From contig JBGAIN010000079.1 in assembly GCA_044225505.1 (NCBI GenBank), forward strand, positions 1-36,443: 36,443 bases of DNA, read 5' to 3'. Each line of letters starts with the position of its first letter. The stretch's first letter is position 1. Positions 30,167 through 36,443 of this stretch are shown piece by piece. Source of the DNA: Limisphaerales bacterium. GTDB taxonomy: Bacteria > Verrucomicrobiota > Verrucomicrobiia > Limisphaerales > SIBE01. Below the pieces are notes generated by a model, which saw only the letters and a list, made by a program, of their open reading frames with translations, searched no databases and was not told the DNA's origin. A program made the translations under genes and the position numbers.

Positions 30167-30736
30167 GTGCAAGAGCTCCGGCAGGTCGAAAACATTGCAT
30201 TGGTAGGATTCATGGGGACTGGCAAAAGCTCAGTCGGACATGCGATCGCGAGTATCCTCCACTTTCACTTTGTCGACACAGACGAACTTATCGAACGTCA
30301 GCTTCGCAAACGAATCTCCGAGATCTTCCAGGAAGAGGGCGAAGAACAATTTCGCAAACACGAGCGGTCCGTCGTCGCGGGCTTGGAATCGATCCAGAAA
30401 CATGTCATTGCGACCGGGGGAGGTGTGGCTGTCGATCCCCGCAATCTTGTGAGTTTAAAGCGGCACGCCCTGATCGTCTGCCTCTGGGCATCAGCCGAAA
30501 CCGTCTGGGAAAGAGTCCGTCATCAGAGCCATCGCCCCTTGCTCAACGGCGCCGAGCCACTGCTTAAAATTCAACGGTTGCTCGCCCAGCGCGAACCGTT
30601 CTATCGTCAGGCGGATGTTCTCGTGAATACCGAATTACGTTCCGTCCGGGAGGTTGCTCTCCAAGTTGTCCACCAATTTCGGCTCGTCCAAGACCGCGCT
30701 GCCCATGAGATCGATCGTCCAAGCCCTGGCCCGTGA
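30167..30736 (+). CDS. aroK: Shikimate kinase
   Basis: GFMGTGKS P-loop, DTD, GEEQFRKHE, ATGGG, RPLL, R.PFY. Confidence 0.96.
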   Translation: MQELRQVENIALVGFMGTGKSSVGHAIASILHFHFVDTDELIERQLRKRISEIFQEEGEEQFRKHERSVVAGLESIQKHVIATGGGVAVDPRNLVSLKRHALIVCLWASAETVWERVRHQSHRPLLNGAEPLLKIQRLLAQREPFYRQADVLVNTELRSVREVALQVVHQFRLVQDRAAHEIDRPSPGP

Positions 30737-31805
30737 GCTCGGGTTTGACGCCTGCCGCGTCACCACTGCCTCCACCCCGGAAAGCGCGGCCCACTTCGAG
30801 CGCTGGCTCGAAGAGGGGTGTCATGGAGAAATGGCTTATCTGCAACGGAATGCAGACAAACGAATCCACCCTCAGAGCGTACTGGCAGGCGCCAAGTCGA
30901 TCATCACCCTCGCGGCGAGCTACGGATCCCCGGAACCCATCTCACGGCGCCATCCGGGCACTTCCATCGCCGCAGATTTCCCAGGAATTCAGGAAACACC
31001 ACGGGCGCCACATGGCGTCATCGCTCGCTACGCCCGGTATTCGGACTACCACGACGTCTTGAACGAGCGGCTTCGAAGCCTTACAGAAAAACTCAAGGAG
31101 CTAGGTGGGCCTGAAACCAAATCGTTGAGTTACGTTGATACCGGCCCATTGCTGGAACGAGACATCGCCCAGCGCGCCGGAATAGGCTTTGTTGGCAAAC
31201 ACACCAACCTCATCGGCCGACAACTGGGCAATTGGTTCTTCCTCGCAGAAATTATTACAACCGTTCCACTTGCACCCGATTTGCCTGAGAAGAATCGCTG
31301 TGGTTCCTGCGTACGCTGTCTGACCGCATGTCCCACCCAAGCGATTACTCGCCCATTCCACCTCGACGCTCGACGCTGCATCTCCTACCTAACGATCGAG
31401 CTCAAAGGGCCGATCCCGGTGCAGTTCCGACGGGCCATCGGCAATCGAATCTTTGGATGTGACGACTGTCTGGAAGCTTGCCCTTGGAACCGGTTCGCGC
31501 GTGCAGCCAAATTGATGCAACCCCATGCACGCCCTGACTTGCAGCAACCTGAGTTGTTCGAACTGCTCCGCCTGGATGACGCCGCATTCAAGAGCCGCTT
31601 CCGTGGGACACCCGTGGAACGGAGCAAACGCCGCGGTTTGCTCCGTAATGTCTGTGTGGCTTTAGGGAACGTTGGGAACTCGTCCGCATTGCCCGCACTC
31701 GAAGCGGCGGCGCAAGATTGCGAACCTCTGATTGCGGAACACGCCGTGTGGGCTTTGAGCGAGATCCGGAGTCGACTAAGCCCTATCAACCATGTAAATC
31801 TGTAA
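30705..31805 (+). CDS. queG: tRNA epoxyqueuosine(34) reductase
   Basis: ARYA..DYH, VDTGP.LER, CGSCVRCLTACP, CISYLTIE, GCDDCLEACPWN, C-terminal HEAT-like repeat. Overlaps the aroK 3' end by 32 nt. Confidence 0.96.
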   Translation: MRSIVQALARELGFDACRVTTASTPESAAHFERWLEEGCHGEMAYLQRNADKRIHPQSVLAGAKSIITLAASYGSPEPISRRHPGTSIAADFPGIQETPRAPHGVIARYARYSDYHDVLNERLRSLTEKLKELGGPETKSLSYVDTGPLLERDIAQRAGIGFVGKHTNLIGRQLGNWFFLAEIITTVPLAPDLPEKNRCGSCVRCLTACPTQAITRPFHLDARRCISYLTIELKGPIPVQFRRAIGNRIFGCDDCLEACPWNRFARAAKLMQPHARPDLQQPELFELLRLDDAAFKSRFRGTPVERSKRRGLLRNVCVALGNVGNSSALPALEAAAQDCEPLIAEHAVWALSEIRSRLSPINHVNL

Positions 31806-31855: not shown

Positions 31856-32530
31856 CTATTCCGGAACTTTCAACAACTCGTCCGACGTCCACTGGCTGCT
31901 GCGCGACGCCGTTTCCGCACGAACGGCTTTGACCTGCTCCGGTGTGATTGCCGGAGCTTTATTGCCCCACGCCTGACGGACGTAACTTAGCACAGCGGCC
32001 AGGTTCTCGTCATCGCTGAGCGGCGGTCCGCCGCCAAACGCCGGCATCTGGACACCCGTCCAAACCTGCCCTTTGACCTGGATATTCCCGGTCAGCCCAT
32101 GCAATGGAATACGAATCAACCGATTTGGAGAGCCTAGAACCCACTCGGACCCGACCAACGGTGGAAATTGACCAGGCGCCCCAAGCCCGCTTTGCTGGTG
32201 GCAAGCTGCACAGATCAAAGCGTAAACCGATTCGCCTTTGGCGACCAACATTTCCGAGCCCGATTTTGGCTGAAGATCCGAAAGTTCCTTGAACGATCGG
32301 TATGGACCGTAAACCCGATTGTTGAATCCACCGCCGTACCGGTCGAGATGGAGCATCCCCCAGTAAACGAGCGCAATCATCAGAACGAACAGCCAAGCGG
32401 GCATTGCTGCCGAATCCACTTGCGGCTCGATTTCGTCGATCGATGCCAAAGACTTTGCCTGCACCACCGAGGTCGGAGCGGGTGCAGCGCCATTGCCACC
32501 GGGACGTTTGTTGTCAGGTTTCTGCTTCAT
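31856..32530 (-). CDS. Membrane-anchored monoheme cytochrome c
   Basis: One TM helix, CAACH, FPPL, distal Met in MPAF, AAVLSYVR..WGN. ATGA overlap with the ccoO-like stop. Confidence 0.92.
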   Translation of the reverse strand: MKQKPDNKRPGGNGAAPAPTSVVQAKSLASIDEIEPQVDSAAMPAWLFVLMIALVYWGMLHLDRYGGGFNNRVYGPYRSFKELSDLQPKSGSEMLVAKGESVYALICAACHQQSGLGAPGQFPPLVGSEWVLGSPNRLIRIPLHGLTGNIQVKGQVWTGVQMPAFGGGPPLSDDENLAAVLSYVRQAWGNKAPAITPEQVKAVRAETASRSSQWTSDELLKVPE

Positions 32531-33473
32531 GGCGGCCCCCCAGGACTGGCAGCTGGGCCGTTCGTAACCGTTGATACCGTATTTGTGTCAGCCGCCGGGC
32601 CATTGGTCGTCGAGGAAGATGATACCAACGGCGGAGCTGGCGCCTCAAACAGGGGCATTTCAGCACGCAAACTCAAAAGGTAGGCCACGAGTGCCCGGGC
32701 CTCCCGGGTGGGGATCACTTCGCGGTCCCCCGAGATCGGCAGCGCCTCTGAACTCGGACGGGAACCGCGCGGTTTGATCGTAAAAAGGTACGGATATCGA
32801 GGCATGATCGACCCGGCGACCTGCGACTTGGGATCATAAAGATGGAGTAAATGCCAGTTCGCGTCTGGCTTCCGGAGCCCTACGTTGGTCAGGTCAGGTC
32901 CGAGCCGAGCCGAGCCGAGCATTAACGGAGTGGCATATAGGTAATCGCACGCGGGGTGGCATATAGGTAATCGGCACCGACGGACAAGCGGGTTCCCCAT
33001 CCACGCTGAATGTCAGGACCGGTCGGAATGACTCGAATGGCCGCCTCTGCACCCGCCGTGCTTAGGCTCTTCTGGGCTGCGTCAGCAGCCGCTTTCCGGG
33101 TGACTCGCAACACCGTCGCCGGCCGGCTGCTCAAGAGCCGCTCCGCCTCACCGGCGGATAGACCACTCCGGAGTTGCACGATCGCTTCGATCACCGCGGG
33201 CTGATTCGTGCCGGGGTCCGTCACCACGACTGCCAGTTCTGCGCCCTCCTGGCGAATGATCTGGGTGTGGCAATAGGCACATCCGTTCGCACGATAAACT
33301 TCGCGACCGAGCGCTGCGACACCGGGAGTCGCCGTCGGATACAAGACGTTCGTTGGAGGAACATTAGTGGCCTGTTGCCCACCCAACTGCAATTGAGGCG
33401 TAACCACCATGCCTAACCAAGATAAGGCCATGGCCCCAAGCAAACCCAAAAAGATAAAGGGTCCAAACCTCAT
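32527..33473 (-). CDS. ccoO: cbb3-type oxidase subunit II-like cytochrome c (CcoO-like) with L7/L12-like insert; frame broken by a 26-bp duplication
   Basis: GREVY..NGCAYCHTQ in the upstream frame; GS.R.GPDL, WH..HL..P and SIMP.Y in the downstream frame. Removing 26 bp at ~32930-32955 restores a 306-aa ORF. Confidence 0.85.
32930..32973. repeat. Direct repeat GTGGCATATAGGTAATCG x2 (period 26 bp) inside ccoO
   Basis: Copies at 32930-32947 and 32956-32973. Confidence 0.95.
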
Positions 33474-34951
33474 GCCGAACGCCTCCCCGCGCGAACGGGA
33501 GTCGCGCGACTTCCGGCGTTTGACCAAAGCGCACAAACGGGACAACAGGCCATGAGAATTCGCAGAAGCTGAACAAAAAAGATAACGTACGCCACGAGCA
33601 AGAGCAGTACCCCGAGAGAGTTAATCCCAAGGAATGGCACGGTTCGGCGGACGACCTGGACAAAGTCGATTCCAGGATCGTTGATACCCGTGCCCTGGAG
33701 CAAGCCTCCCACGAGCAAAGCGATCCCACTCGCCGCAGTCCCCACGGTGGCCATCCAAAAGTGCAACCGGGTCGCTGTAAGACGAGGAAGCTCTGGGCAT
33801 CCCGCCACTTTCGGAGCCACATAGTAAACTGCTCCGGCCAGCGCCATGGCCAAAAACCCATGCAACCGAAGTTGCGTGACGCCTTCATTGTAAATCGTAA
33901 AAGAGGTCAACTGGCTTACTGCTGGGTGGGACGCAGCCGCTGCCAACAGAGCGACCGCAACATAAACAACGGCAGCCATCAGCGTGAACCGGAGCGTCGG
34001 GTCTGCTTTTTGCAGCGACCCAGCCTGCGCCGTCTGGAACCAACTCAAGCCAAAGGCGAAGATCGGCAAAAGCAAGATTACCCGCGCCACCACCCCAACA
34101 CTACCCATCCAATTCGGAACGGGCTCCCCGACGCGCACTCCTCCCCAACCGCCAAGCAGCACGAAGAACCAAAACCCGAACAGAATCAAACCGCGACTGT
34201 ATAATGGTCGTCCCGTTAGTTTTGGCAGGAAATAGAAGATCGAGGCCAACCCGAACGAGGACGCCGCGACTTCAAAGAGATTGTGAGCATACCATCCATT
34301 AACGACCGCTTGCATGACCCCTCGAACCGGTGCCATGACCAAAAGAATCTGTGCGGTCGCATAGATCCACGGAAACCAGAGCAACGCGGCGAGCAGAAAC
34401 CACTGCGAAACGAATAAGTCCCGGTTGTTCCGCCCGTGAAGATTGATCAGAGCCCAAGCCGCCACCAGGAGATAGGCAAGAAACATTACGGGAGATGCCG
34501 TCCTGGGGATTTCCATCCATTCGTAGCCCGTGCTGTCCCCTGCCAAAATCGAAATCAATCCGATCGCCAACCCTAAATTCCAAAGGACTGTTCCAGCCCC
34601 AATGATCCAACCGCCTTGCAGTCGATTACGGCCTAGTCTTGAGGAGATCCAAAGCGCGAGGCCTAATCCCGTCTGAATAACAAAACCGTAGATAAACGCA
34701 TTGCTGCTGAACGGGCGTACCCGGCCGTAAGTCAGCCAGGAAGCTCCTGCGATAAAGCCTGACGCATGATTTTTGATTGCGGTCAGAAGTCCAAACAAAC
34801 CGCTCCAGGCTAGCCAGCAAGCGCCAGCCGCAAAGAGCAATAACACTGGCCAACGGCAGGAACGATCAATCTCCCCCACCGTCAAAGTCGTGACGCCCCC
34901 TGCCGAGGGGGAAACGACTGTCGAGGCCAGAGGTGATGAGGGAGAACTCAT
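33470..34951 (-). CDS. CcoN-like (heme-copper oxidase subunit I fold) protein lacking most metal ligands
   Basis: ~12 TM; YGRVRP, EWME, FVSQW, WYAHN, YFLPK..GRPLYS, YY..P, HFW match CcoN. The helix II His, helix VII HH and helix X HxH are absent. Confidence 0.88.
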   Translation of the reverse strand: MSSPSSPLASTVVSPSAGGVTTLTVGEIDRSCRWPVLLLFAAGACWLAWSGLFGLLTAIKNHASGFIAGASWLTYGRVRPFSSNAFIYGFVIQTGLGLALWISSRLGRNRLQGGWIIGAGTVLWNLGLAIGLISILAGDSTGYEWMEIPRTASPVMFLAYLLVAAWALINLHGRNNRDLFVSQWFLLAALLWFPWIYATAQILLVMAPVRGVMQAVVNGWYAHNLFEVAASSFGLASIFYFLPKLTGRPLYSRGLILFGFWFFVLLGGWGGVRVGEPVPNWMGSVGVVARVILLLPIFAFGLSWFQTAQAGSLQKADPTLRFTLMAAVVYVAVALLAAAASHPAVSQLTSFTIYNEGVTQLRLHGFLAMALAGAVYYVAPKVAGCPELPRLTATRLHFWMATVGTAASGIALLVGGLLQGTGINDPGIDFVQVVRRTVPFLGINSLGVLLLLVAYVIFFVQLLRILMACCPVCALWSNAGSRATPVRAGRRSA

Positions 34952-34980
34952 GAAACAAAGACGCACTATCCGGTAACAAC

Positions 34981-35361
34981 CTATTCAAATGCCGACGGTT
35001 TTTCCGGCTCTTTCGGTGGCGGCGGCGGATTGGCCTTTTCGACGCGCGCCAGCAGATTAGAACGCCCCACTGACGGGTTCTTCCATTCGCGGACGACGAG
35101 ATCCATCGCCCGTGCAATCGGCAATCGGACCAATCCTTTTGTCTGATCTTGCCAGCCGTAGTTATTGAGCGCCTCCGTGCCGGCCGCGTTAATGTCCCGC
35201 AGGTTTTTGATGCGCTCATCTATCCGGGCCTGGTTGACCGTGGCCGGTTGGGTGCGGACGTACAACAGCCAGGCCAAGGCGCCCACAATTAACAGCGCGC
35301 CTAACACGGCCACAAAGTAAACCGCGACAGAAATGATCCTTGATTCAGGTCGAGAGTTCAT
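34981..35361 (-). CDS. Single-TM protein downstream of actF (ActG-like)
   Basis: ATG 35361, N-terminal TM, LNNYGWQD...G.VRLPIARAM motif of the kind seen in small genes following actF, Pro-rich tail. The ActG label rests on position and motif memory. Confidence 0.65.
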   Translation of the reverse strand: MNSRPESRIISVAVYFVAVLGALLIVGALAWLLYVRTQPATVNQARIDERIKNLRDINAAGTEALNNYGWQDQTKGLVRLPIARAMDLVVREWKNPSVGRSNLLARVEKANPPPPPKEPEKPSAFE

Positions 35362-35404
35362 GTTCGTCACAACTCGATTTGCCAGGCCACGCGACCGCGC
35401 CAAA

Positions 35405-36443
35405 TCACTTGCCACCTCCACGTGCCGGCAATGGCTGCGCGGAAGCGCTGACAGGCGGGACATATACTTTCATCGTCTCTGCAAACCGAGGATCTTTCTG
35501 CGGGAATGCCGGATGCGCGGCAAAATAGCGCAAGAAGACCGTGGTCAAAACCCCGCCAATAAAAGCGAGACAAGAAATATCCAGCCAATGCAAAACCCAA
35601 CCGTCTGGATGGAGGACAGGCATGATGTTGAACGATAAATCGGTGAAATGCATCAACCATGCCCAGACAAAAATAAAGCCCATGACCGACAATTTGAGTT
35701 TAAAATCAATCCGCAGCAACAAGAGGAACGGCAAGAAGAAGTGACCAAATATGATCACCAATCCGACATACCACCAACTCCCCTTTTCTCGCACCACATA
35801 CCAGAAGGTTTCCTCTGGCAGATTCGCGTTCCAAATAATGAAATACTGGGAAAAGTGGATATAGGCGTAAAACACCGTAAACGCCAATTGCAGCGATCCC
35901 AGAAAGTAAAACGTCTCCTCGTGCACCACTTCGCGCAACGGGCCAGTCCGCTGCAAAACGAGGGTAATCATGTAAACCGTGGCAATCGTTGTCCAGACGC
36001 TTCCAGCAAAGTAATAAACGCCATACATGGTCGAGAACCATTGGTGCTGCAGCGCTTTCATCCACATGATCGCCGCCAGGGTCAATGTGATCGCGAAGAA
36101 GAACATTCCCACCGCAGACCATTTGCGGAGCTTAAAGGTGCACAGCGCGGCTCCTGTCTCGTCCTGTCGCAGTGACCACGAGCGAAGCTGATAAGAGAAG
36201 AGGGTCCAGACGCCAAAACAAAATGCGGCTACGACATAGAACATCGTCTTCGTAAACAAGGGCTGCTTCGCGTGCAACGCATGGTCCAGGTGCGGATTCA
36301 GATCCATCCAAGGATAAATCGGAATCGCGGGTGCAAGCAGGGCAATGGGAATAAACAGAACGGCCATCACGGGTAGAAGAAACGCCATATGCTCTTCCAA
36401 CCGCCGGATCGCCACTGACCAACTGGCGTCAAACAAATGATGG
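35405..36443 (-). CDS. actF: Alternative complex III subunit ActF (partial, start beyond window)
   Basis: Multi-TM NrfD-like protein with W...IRR..E, WFSTMYG, FSQYFIIWNANLPEET, P..DPR. Confidence 0.9.
   Translation of the reverse strand, partial: HHLFDASWSVAIRRLEEHMAFLLPVMAVLFIPIALLAPAIPIYPWMDLNPHLDHALHAKQPLFTKTMFYVVAAFCFGVWTLFSYQLRSWSLRQDETGAALCTFKLRKWSAVGMFFFAITLTLAAIMWMKALQHQWFSTMYGVYYFAGSVWTTIATVYMITLVLQRTGPLREVVHEETFYFLGSLQLAFTVFYAYIHFSQYFIIWNANLPEETFWYVVREKGSWWYVGLVIIFGHFFLPFLLLLRIDFKLKLSVMGFIFVWAWLMHFTDLSFNIMPVLHPDGWVLHWLDISCLAFIGGVLTTVFLRYFAAHPAFPQKDPRFAETMKVYVPPVSASAQPLPARGGGK

Follow-up and report, generated by a model that had tools for sequence, protein, structure and literature searches.

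The window analysed here is a stretch of DNA of 36,443 nucleotides, contig JBGAIN010000079.1 (positions 1 to 36,443, forward strand) of a Limisphaerales bacterium from the phylum Verrucomicrobiota (assembly GCA_044225505.1). At one end of it, on the minus strand, lie genes of an operon for alternative complex III (ACIII): actF, a gene for a small ActG-like protein, homologues of the cbb3 oxidase genes ccoN and ccoO, and a gene for a cytochrome c. Our subject is the ccoN homologue, which we call ccoN'. It has lost five of the six heme/CuB histidines and the cross-link tyrosine of the catalytic subunit of cbb3 oxidases, and it belongs to a widespread clade of similarly ligand-poor proteins that is under purifying selection.

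33470..34951, minus strand: ccoN', a ligand-poor CcoN homologue of 493 amino acids (by Pfam, phmmer, alignment and an AlphaFold2 model)

The ccoN' gene and its fold

The longest open reading frame (ORF) at this site, 33470..34966 on the minus strand, has a GTG start and encodes 498 amino acids. The ATG at 34951 is Met6 of this ORF and gives a product of 493 amino acids; a database protein of that length is 100% identical to the product from this ATG. Residue numbers of ccoN' are those of the 498-amino-acid ORF throughout. A preliminary description of the locus, made from the letters only, had reported a full-length frame without stops that keeps several structural motifs. The frame is indeed open, and GRVRP, the ExxE loop and RPLYS are all found in it.

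With Pfam COX1 (PF00115), ccoN' scores 120.2 bits over residues 41-454, well above the gathering cut-off of 34.8, which makes it a member of the heme-copper oxidase (HCO) superfamily, subunit I. A phmmer search against all PDB chains finds CcoN of Pseudomonas stutzeri (3mk7_A) with an E value of 3.1e-26. The score with the NCBIfam ccoN equivalog model TIGR00780 is 124.1 bits against a cut-off of 583.15, so ccoN' does not qualify as a ccoN equivalog. An AlphaFold2 model, made with 120 homologues, reaches a predicted local distance difference test score (pLDDT) of 92.6. Foldseek aligns it to 3mk7_A with TM-scores of 0.84/0.89 and a root mean square deviation of 2.2 Å over 452 columns, and the model has the 12-helix transmembrane (TM) fold of subunit I. 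This structural comparison gave global scores only; the placement of ligands in ccoN' comes from sequence alignments.

Loss of the cofactor ligands

The losses appear both in a phmmer alignment to 3mk7_A and in an alignment of the 120 nearest homologues. The corresponding positions are as follows, P. stutzeri CcoN first and ccoN' second.

His60 (RPLHTN): Ser87 (RPFSSN)
His207 (WYGHN): His228 (WYAHN), kept
Tyr251 (YIWAGPHH): Gly272 (GGWGGVRV)
His257 and His258 (YIWAGPHH): Arg278 and Val279 (GGWGGVRV)
His345 and His347 (GHVH): Val363 and Gln365 (GVTQ)

In the P. stutzeri protein we take His60 and His347 to be the ligands of low-spin heme b, His345 that of high-spin heme b3, His207, His257 and His258 those of CuB, and Tyr251 the active-site cross-link tyrosine. 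In ccoN' the two heme b positions hold serine and glutamine and the heme b3 position holds valine. Arginine and valine replace two of the three CuB histidines, which leaves His228 as the sole histidine ligand, and glycine stands at the cross-link position. The preliminary description had read these changes by eye and proposed an alignment to P. stutzeri CcoN as a check. That alignment bears them out, and the nucleotide ranges given for them agree with the residues above when calculated from the ORF coordinates. It had also pointed to the histidine in LRLHG as a possible substitute ligand. This residue, His369, aligns four residues past the His347 position, in an unconserved column (Tyr in 59, His in 32 and Leu in 20 of the 120 nearest homologues). 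The loss of cofactor ligands in ccoN' is confirmed. At the seven columns, 17 of the 120 homologues and the canonical CcoN anchors have HHYHHHH, and a complete set at identical columns argues against an alignment artefact.

A family of ligand-poor proteins

The nearest homologues come from a search of 5.8 billion protein sequences. Besides the 17 that have all seven sites, 103 are ligand-poor and keep from none to four of them: none in 38, one in 37, two in 23, three in 4 and four in 1. An exhaustive HMMER search over 1.84 billion representatives of 50%-identity clusters yielded 324 matches at E <= 1e-30. The best 150 of these are 147 ligand-poor and 3 full-ligand sequences, and 135 of the 147 are ungapped at every site. 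Since the query itself is ligand-poor, its search retrieves mostly ligand-poor relatives.

No conserved replacement ligand was found at any of the seven sites among the best 150 cluster representatives. The commonest residues in the ligand-poor ones, taken in order along the sequence, are A, N (then H and G), G/A, P, A/R/S, L and Q. The Tyr251 column holds G or A in 113 of the 135 ungapped ligand-poor representatives, and the column of His228 is histidine in 61 of the 120 nearest homologues. Within the ligand-poor clade, the ligand columns are free to vary; about 80 other positions are at least 85% conserved, and most of these are common to the full-ligand sisters or to all CcoN.

A census covered 401 evenly sampled Verrucomicrobiota genomes, among them the own genome of the window. 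A CcoN match of the ACIII clade at E <= 1e-40 was found in 93 genomes. The 93 matches outside the own genome, in 92 genomes, are 51 full-ligand and 42 ligand-poor copies; in the census alignment the His258 column was shifted in all rows, canonical anchors included, and HHYH.HH was scored as full. The two forms are about equally common across Verrucomicrobiota. In genome G366 both forms of the ACIII-clade ccoN occur, ligand-poor and full-ligand, on separate contigs (L090 and L174).

Two sub-clades deserve mention. Members with the pattern AHGHH.K (loci L008, L009, L014, L015 and L020; rows P0095 and P0117) keep equivalents of the three CuB histidines, and all three heme histidines and the tyrosine are gone. 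Members with QGGHHRQ keep two CuB-histidine equivalents.

Phylogeny and selection

Trees were calculated with FastTree and rooted on proteobacterial CcoN. Loci L034 and L038, in which ccoN' is split, were excluded from trees and pattern counts, and P0047 and P0119 (<400 amino acids) from the tree with 131 ligand-poor rows. The ligand-poor rows form one clade in the homologue tree (131/131, Shimodaira-Hasegawa-like support 89) and in the census tree (52/52, support 84). Next to this clade are 46 full-ligand Verrucomicrobiota sequences, which group together, and a clade from Planctomycetota. A branch of 1-2 substitutions per site separates ACIII-linked CcoN from both canonical CcoN and the fused CcoNO of the own genome. 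A single loss of the ligands is the most parsimonious explanation, and it has moderate support.

The ratio of non-synonymous to synonymous substitution rates (dN/dS) was estimated by the Nei-Gojobori method, with exclusion of pairs with saturated dS (1 of 15 ligand-poor and 6 of 18 full-ligand pairs). Its median is 0.17 for the 14 usable ligand-poor pairs (range 0.05-0.36) and 0.065 for the 12 usable pairs of full-ligand sisters. Two pairs of ORFs, L011/L012 and L013/L017, give 0.196 and 0.147. For the same genome pairs actF gives 0.04-0.23, which is similar to ccoN'. It is clear that ccoN' is under purifying selection, about 2.6-fold relaxed in comparison with the catalytic sisters. The suggestion made in the preliminary description, that selection acts on the fold and not on O2 reduction, finds support in the size of the family, its single clade, dN/dS and the pattern of variation.

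The operon and its conservation

The genes that accompany ccoN' in the window are the following.

35405..36442, minus strand: actF, second NrfD-like membrane subunit of ACIII, its 5' end cut by the end of the contig
34981..35361, minus strand: gene of an ActG-like small subunit of 126 amino acids, between actF and ccoN'
32527..33473, minus strand: ccoO', monoheme cytochrome c subunit with CAYCH and the Met motif SIMPRYPYLF
31856..32530, minus strand: membrane-anchored monoheme cytochrome c, CcoP-like, with CAACH; last gene of the operon

The ActF product matches the PDB chains 6f0k_F (E 1.7e-58) and 6btm_F (E 8.9e-24) in phmmer searches. Genes actA to actE, located by tblastn with the ActA-E proteins of locus L008, are at the end of another contig of the own genome (C252, 6425..6); this end and the window end at 36442 almost certainly abut. 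In L008 the whole operon, actABCDEF-G-ccoN'-ccoO'-cytochrome c, is in one piece, and in the window too ccoN' is part of a co-directional cluster with act genes. The ActG-like gene likely starts at Met35 of ORF 34981..35463. Its product has a single TM helix, at the N-terminus, followed by the conserved motif GW.D..KG.VR.PI..A, and its tail reads PEKPSAFE; it shows a weak profile match to ActG (8k9e_G, E 0.47) over the IPI.RAM motif and no match to Pfam or NCBIfam.

Both halves of ccoO' match Pfam FixO, and the NCBIfam ccoO model matches as well, so that ccoN' has next to it a CcoO with CxxCH, as in a ccoNOP operon. The last gene resembles a ccoNOP operon less. Its product matches Pfam Cytochrom_C (40.5 bits) and Cytochrome_CBB3 (32.6 bits), reaches 28.4 bits with the ccoP model TIGR00782, whose cut-off is 180, and has one CxxCH, hence it is not a diheme CcoP. 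The stop and start codons of ccoN'/ccoO' and of ccoO'/cytochrome c overlap as ATGA.

The same arrangement recurs in other genomes. The synteny set consists of 35 Verrucomicrobiota and Planctomycetota loci with 10-kb flanks, searched by tblastn.

actF upstream of ccoN: 34 of 35 loci
ActG-like gene between actF and ccoN: 27 of 35 loci
ccoO' downstream of ccoN: 35 of 35 loci
cytochrome c gene: 29 of 35 loci; 3 of the 6 misses are loci that end there

Among census loci with flanks, actF, ccoN, ccoO and the cytochrome c gene follow in this order in 29 of 29, of which 21 are full-ligand and 8 ligand-poor. The two forms occupy the same operon. Full-ligand loci L026 and L030 of the synteny set have it; L036 has no actF match. 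The heme c motifs are kept: CxxCH is invariant in CcoO' (30 of 30 relatives) and present in 28 of the 29 cytochromes c found.

Synteny extends past the operon. A queG gene (epoxyqueuosine reductase; 30654-31805, plus strand) is convergent to the operon end in the window, and it is also convergent in L008 (13053-14117, minus strand), where CcoN' has 39% identity. Another observation concerns the S.MPP motif of CcoO', the methionine of which is presumably the sixth heme ligand. In four early-branching ligand-poor loci (L023, L027, L033 and L039) this methionine is replaced by cysteine, e.g. in GSICPP and NSTCPP, which hints at His/Cys ligation of the heme. In six RNA runs, 0.05-0.06 of the sampled words were present.

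CcoO': interface with CcoN' and an insert

The complex of CcoN' and CcoO' was predicted for locus L016, whose CcoN' has no ligand at all. The score is 0.89, that of the best control 0.00; of 157 solved complexes 116 reach this mark, and of 215 mismatched pairs 2 do. At least 94% of contacts are shared between runs, and the pLDDT of the partner is at least 85. Since cbb3 complexes have already been solved, such a pass shows likeness to them and may reflect structures that the predictor has learned. The predicted interface is enriched in positions that the clade conserves (23 of 78 versus 59 of 404, Fisher p 0.003). The interface between CcoN' and CcoO' is thus predicted to be retained.

Directly after its CxxCH motif, CcoO' contains an insert resembling the C-terminal domain of ribosomal protein L7/L12 (33036-33233, minus strand; residues 105-170 of ORF 32922..33545). 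Pfam Ribosomal_L12 scores 28.8 bits on it against a cut-off of 25.9, and matches in 5 of 30 CcoO' relatives. In the CcoO' alignment the insert is limited to crown ligand-poor lineages; full-ligand ones are without it. It models as beta-alpha-alpha-beta with pLDDT 87-94 (76 for the AlphaFold2 model of the whole CcoO'), and in L016, where it spans residues ~77-132, it lies outside the predicted CcoN' interface.

A duplication in ccoO'

The assembly of the window splits ccoO' into two ORFs, 32922..33545 and 32527..33000. The cause is visible at the junction.

32920..32975, minus strand: imperfect 26-nucleotide tandem duplication; a 17-nucleotide identical core occurs twice, 26 nucleotides apart

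Removal of 26 nucleotides rejoins the frames (33545-33000 = 545, 2 mod 3) into a product of ~306 amino acids, and ccoO' is a single ORF in relatives. Exactly these 26 nucleotides are absent from contigs of four out of four runs, from four studies of activated sludge and bioreactor metagenomes; these contigs otherwise have 0-3 differences from the window. One of the four runs may be the source sample, and the three others lack the 26 nucleotides too. The duplication is likely a misassembly at a strain-variable site, or else a rare variant, and not operon decay.

Other oxidases and a link to aa3

The own genome encodes a true fused CcoNO (NF011053 1260.7 bits, TIGR00780 661.7 bits), with CcoP after it and a P-type ATPase fragment before it, as well as an aa3-type CtaD with CtaB and CoxC, a qNOR and a cytochrome b gene. 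Each of the 42 census genomes in which a ligand-poor copy occurs has two or more PF00115 matches, the best at E <= 1e-125. The 51 full-ligand copies are spread over 50 genomes, and in 5 of these the ACIII-linked copy is the only PF00115 match. These genome counts are descriptive, as kin are not independent.

In two early-branching ligand-poor loci a complete aa3 oxidase operon, COX1-COX3-(COX4)-COX2-CtaA-CtaB, comes directly after the cytochrome c gene.

L027, 13257-18519, same strand as the cbb3-like module: complete aa3 oxidase operon
L032, 12970-20157, same strand as the cbb3-like module: complete aa3 oxidase operon, with CtaA and CtaB following the COX genes

In neither of the two does COX2 have a cytochrome c domain, hence that oxidase needs an external cytochrome c donor. 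COX genes are found downstream in 6 of the 35 loci (L023, L027, L031, L032, L037 and L039). Among the census genomes, at least 8 of the 42 ligand-poor ones have an A-type COX1 no more than ~4 kb downstream and on the same strand, as do at least 2 early-branching full-ligand ones; both counts are lower bounds, from the best 150 of 364 matches. Two Hcp genes of a type VI secretion system are next after the aa3 operon in L027.

What ccoN' might do

What could be the use of an oxidase core without its ligands? We think it probable that ccoN' is a redox-dead scaffold, which holds two hemes c beside ACIII as an electron relay to terminal enzymes. Its ancestor would have been the catalytic subunit of a cbb3 oxidase linked to ACIII. 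With heme b, heme b3 and CuB lost, the protein would have been kept as a 12-helix membrane scaffold that still holds CcoO' and the monoheme CcoP-like protein. It would be made with ACIII from one operon and probably forms one supercomplex with it. The pair of hemes c could then serve as a membrane-fixed relay from ACIII, that is, from the hemes of ActA and ActE, to terminal enzymes elsewhere. Candidate acceptors are the aa3 oxidase, the real cbb3 oxidase and other cytochrome-c-dependent reductases. Within the ccoN' module itself O2 would not be reduced. In favour of this proposal are the loss of ligands on an intact fold, the size and single origin of the family, purifying selection, an operon common to both forms, the unbroken heme c motifs of the partners, the predicted CcoN'-CcoO' interface, the presence of functional oxidases in the genomes and the link to aa3.

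A more specific proposal can be made, to which we give somewhat less than even credence. What was once a cbb3 oxidase would now be permanently built into an ACIII supercomplex as a redox-dead subunit, with a core that only positions two hemes c as the exit wire of ACIII to aa3-type oxidases and other acceptors. One heme would be that of CcoO', whose L7/L12-like insert in the crown group would be a periplasmic domain, and the other that of the CcoP-like cytochrome. The loss would have happened once, probably in an ancestor with both cbb3 and aa3 in the operon; redundancy of the two could have made the catalytic centre of cbb3 dispensable at a time when its scaffold was still essential.

Several points weigh against the relay proposal. 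The presence of a cytochrome b gene in the own genome means that ACIII is not the sole route to cytochrome c. In the crown sub-clade of the query no oxidase adjoins the operon: the cytochrome c gene is its last, and queG lies beyond in convergent orientation. That the protein carries neither heme b nor copper is deduced from its sequence, and members of the AHGHH.K and QGGHHRQ sub-clades might still bind metal. The clade support of 84-89 is not decisive. In a 3.7-kb stretch the window has only three base differences from the contigs of the other runs, at 33186, 33745 and 33780, and all three are non-synonymous (E120D in ccoO', V408L and L396P in ccoN'). The ccoO' frameshift would count here as well if it were real in the organism, and the four runs indicate that it is not.

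Other explanations can be imagined. If ccoN' were an assembly or stability element of ACIII, or an ion- or proton-conducting module, the cytochromes c would be no essential relay. Such a non-redox role would fit purifying selection and the strict proximity of ccoN, whichever its form, to actF and actG. It would also fit the frequent R, K and Q in place of heme ligands inside TM helices, and the conservation at 85% or more of Glu152 and other residues common to canonical CcoN. However, the heme c motifs of the partners are kept almost without exception, and a purely structural part would not need them; we regard this role as rather unlikely. It is more improbable still that ccoN' is a redox enzyme, with hemes or metal bound by non-canonical ligands and a new activity, e.g. 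with NO or peroxide or some other acceptor. In its favour, the query and half of its near homologues retain His228, His67 and His402 are ~90% conserved in the clade, and some sub-clades have all three CuB histidines. Other HCO families with remodelled active sites exist, e.g. gNOR with Asp for His, according to the available text of Murali et al. 2024 (PMC11214002). Yet none of the seven sites has a conserved replacement. Canonical CcoN conserves His402 to the same degree, as the full-ligand ACIII-linked sisters do His67, and all six ligands are present in both of these groups; His369 is not conserved, and the higher dN/dS fits a lost catalytic constraint.

We give very little weight to the idea that ccoN' is a decaying pseudogene or a functionless remnant in the operon. 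Lost ligands, a frameshift in the adjoining ccoO' of the window assembly and split ccoN' genes in L034 and L038 are what decay would produce. Against this, the frame of 498 amino acids is open, at least 135 ungapped ligand-poor cluster representatives have normal length, dN/dS does not exceed 0.36, translational coupling through the ATGA overlaps is preserved, and the 26-nucleotide insertion is missing from the contigs of the four runs. Hardly credible at all is a mere artefact of alignment, with ligands present but shifted. One MAFFT run did move the His258 column by one, in all rows including the canonical anchors. But HMMER pairwise alignments to two solved CcoN chains and three independent multiple alignments agree with each other, the flanking motifs W-Y-x-H-N and G-x-T-x are aligned, and the query has six histidines in total, none within one residue of a lost site.

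Comparison with known systems

The closest solved relatives are CcoN of P. stutzeri (3MK7/5DJQ) and of P. aeruginosa (8SMR). With them ccoN' shares the 12-TM fold (TM-scores 0.84-0.90), homology at E 3e-26, a CcoO-type monoheme partner and a CcoP-like cytochrome c downstream, and a predicted CcoN-CcoO-like interface. It differs from them in keeping one of six metal histidines and no cross-link tyrosine, in its TIGR00780 score (124 versus 583), in a branch 1-2 substitutions per site away, in the place of its gene inside an ACIII operon, and in a CcoP-like partner with one heme motif instead of two. Full-ligand ACIII-linked CcoN of Verrucomicrobiota and Planctomycetota is a sister clade with the same operon and 35-40% identity to ccoN'. 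Unlike ccoN' it has all seven sites and a median dN/dS of 0.065, and it is the only HCO in five census genomes.

It is known in print that ACIII and a C-type oxidase are co-located in Verrucomicrobiota. The available text of PMC8498564 describes a C-type oxidase beside ACIII in verrucomicrobial methanotrophs and Opitutaceae, citing Refojo 2010. In the available parts of genome papers on Verrucomicrobiota (PMC6688271, PMC8498564, PMC13608581) the ACIII-adjacent ccoN is taken as a working or high-affinity cbb3 oxidase. To this we add a census of the phylum, a tree with a single ligand-poor clade, the difference in dN/dS between the two forms, the linkage to aa3 and an explanation of the frameshift in ccoO'.

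The ACIII-caa3 supercomplex of Flavobacterium johnsoniae (6BTM) is similar in that act and oxidase genes are co-located and ActF is homologous (6btm_F, as above). It hands electrons over directly, without soluble cytochrome c (Sun et al. 2018, as cited in the available text of PMC8498564 and PMC6688271), an idea that the relay proposal shares. There the partner is an A-type oxidase that works and carries a cytochrome c domain itself; the core of ccoN' would be cofactor-less, and the aa3 operon that follows the ccoN' module in L027 and L032 has a COX2 without such a domain.

Families cNOR, qNOR, NOD, eNOR, sNOR, gNOR and nNOR derive from O2 reductases and have lost the cross-link tyrosine, as stated in the available text of Murali et al. 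2024 (PMC11214002). In descent from an O2 reductase and loss of the tyrosine, ccoN' is like them. According to the same text, however, these remodelled families keep heme and metal sites (FeB with three His plus Glu; in gNOR one His is changed to Asp), and the ligand-poor clade has no conserved ligand at any site. No cofactor-less family is named in the available part of that survey. A full-text search of the literature found no paper describing ligand loss in ACIII-linked CcoN; supplements and Refojo et al. 2010 lay outside its scope.

Implications

If the scaffold proposal is true, ccoN' would be the first pseudo-enzyme member of the HCO superfamily, as far as our literature search found. 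Inactive peptidase-like core proteins of the mitochondrial bc1 complex are another catalytic fold kept as a structural subunit; the parallel would be one of analogy only, with no homology. For bioenergetics, a cofactor-less HCO core on ACIII would offer a testable case of an enzyme becoming a structural or relay subunit, and it would bear on how ACIII passes electrons to oxidases. For evolution, full-ligand sisters, ligand-poor copies with aa3 and ligand-poor copies alone would form a natural series by which the loss could be dated and ordered. There would also be a practical consequence. Source databases label these genes 'cbb3-type cytochrome c oxidase subunit I', and a call of 'cbb3 oxidase present' would be wrong for ~45% (42 of 93) of the ACIII-linked copies in the sampled Verrucomicrobiota. 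Micro-aerobic respiration inferred from such an annotation can therefore be wrong.

In-frame stop codons in other genomes

Three census genomes (G072, G021 and G219) have matches to ACIII-linked ccoN with one in-frame TAA inside the matched span, which may be upstream read-through of the match. In a Verrucomicrobiota genome of 2.0 Mb, an A-type COX1 match (G070:C3:14026-15366) contains 10 in-frame TGA codons. These could reflect TGA recoding or contamination; a second COX1 copy in the same genome has no in-frame TGA.

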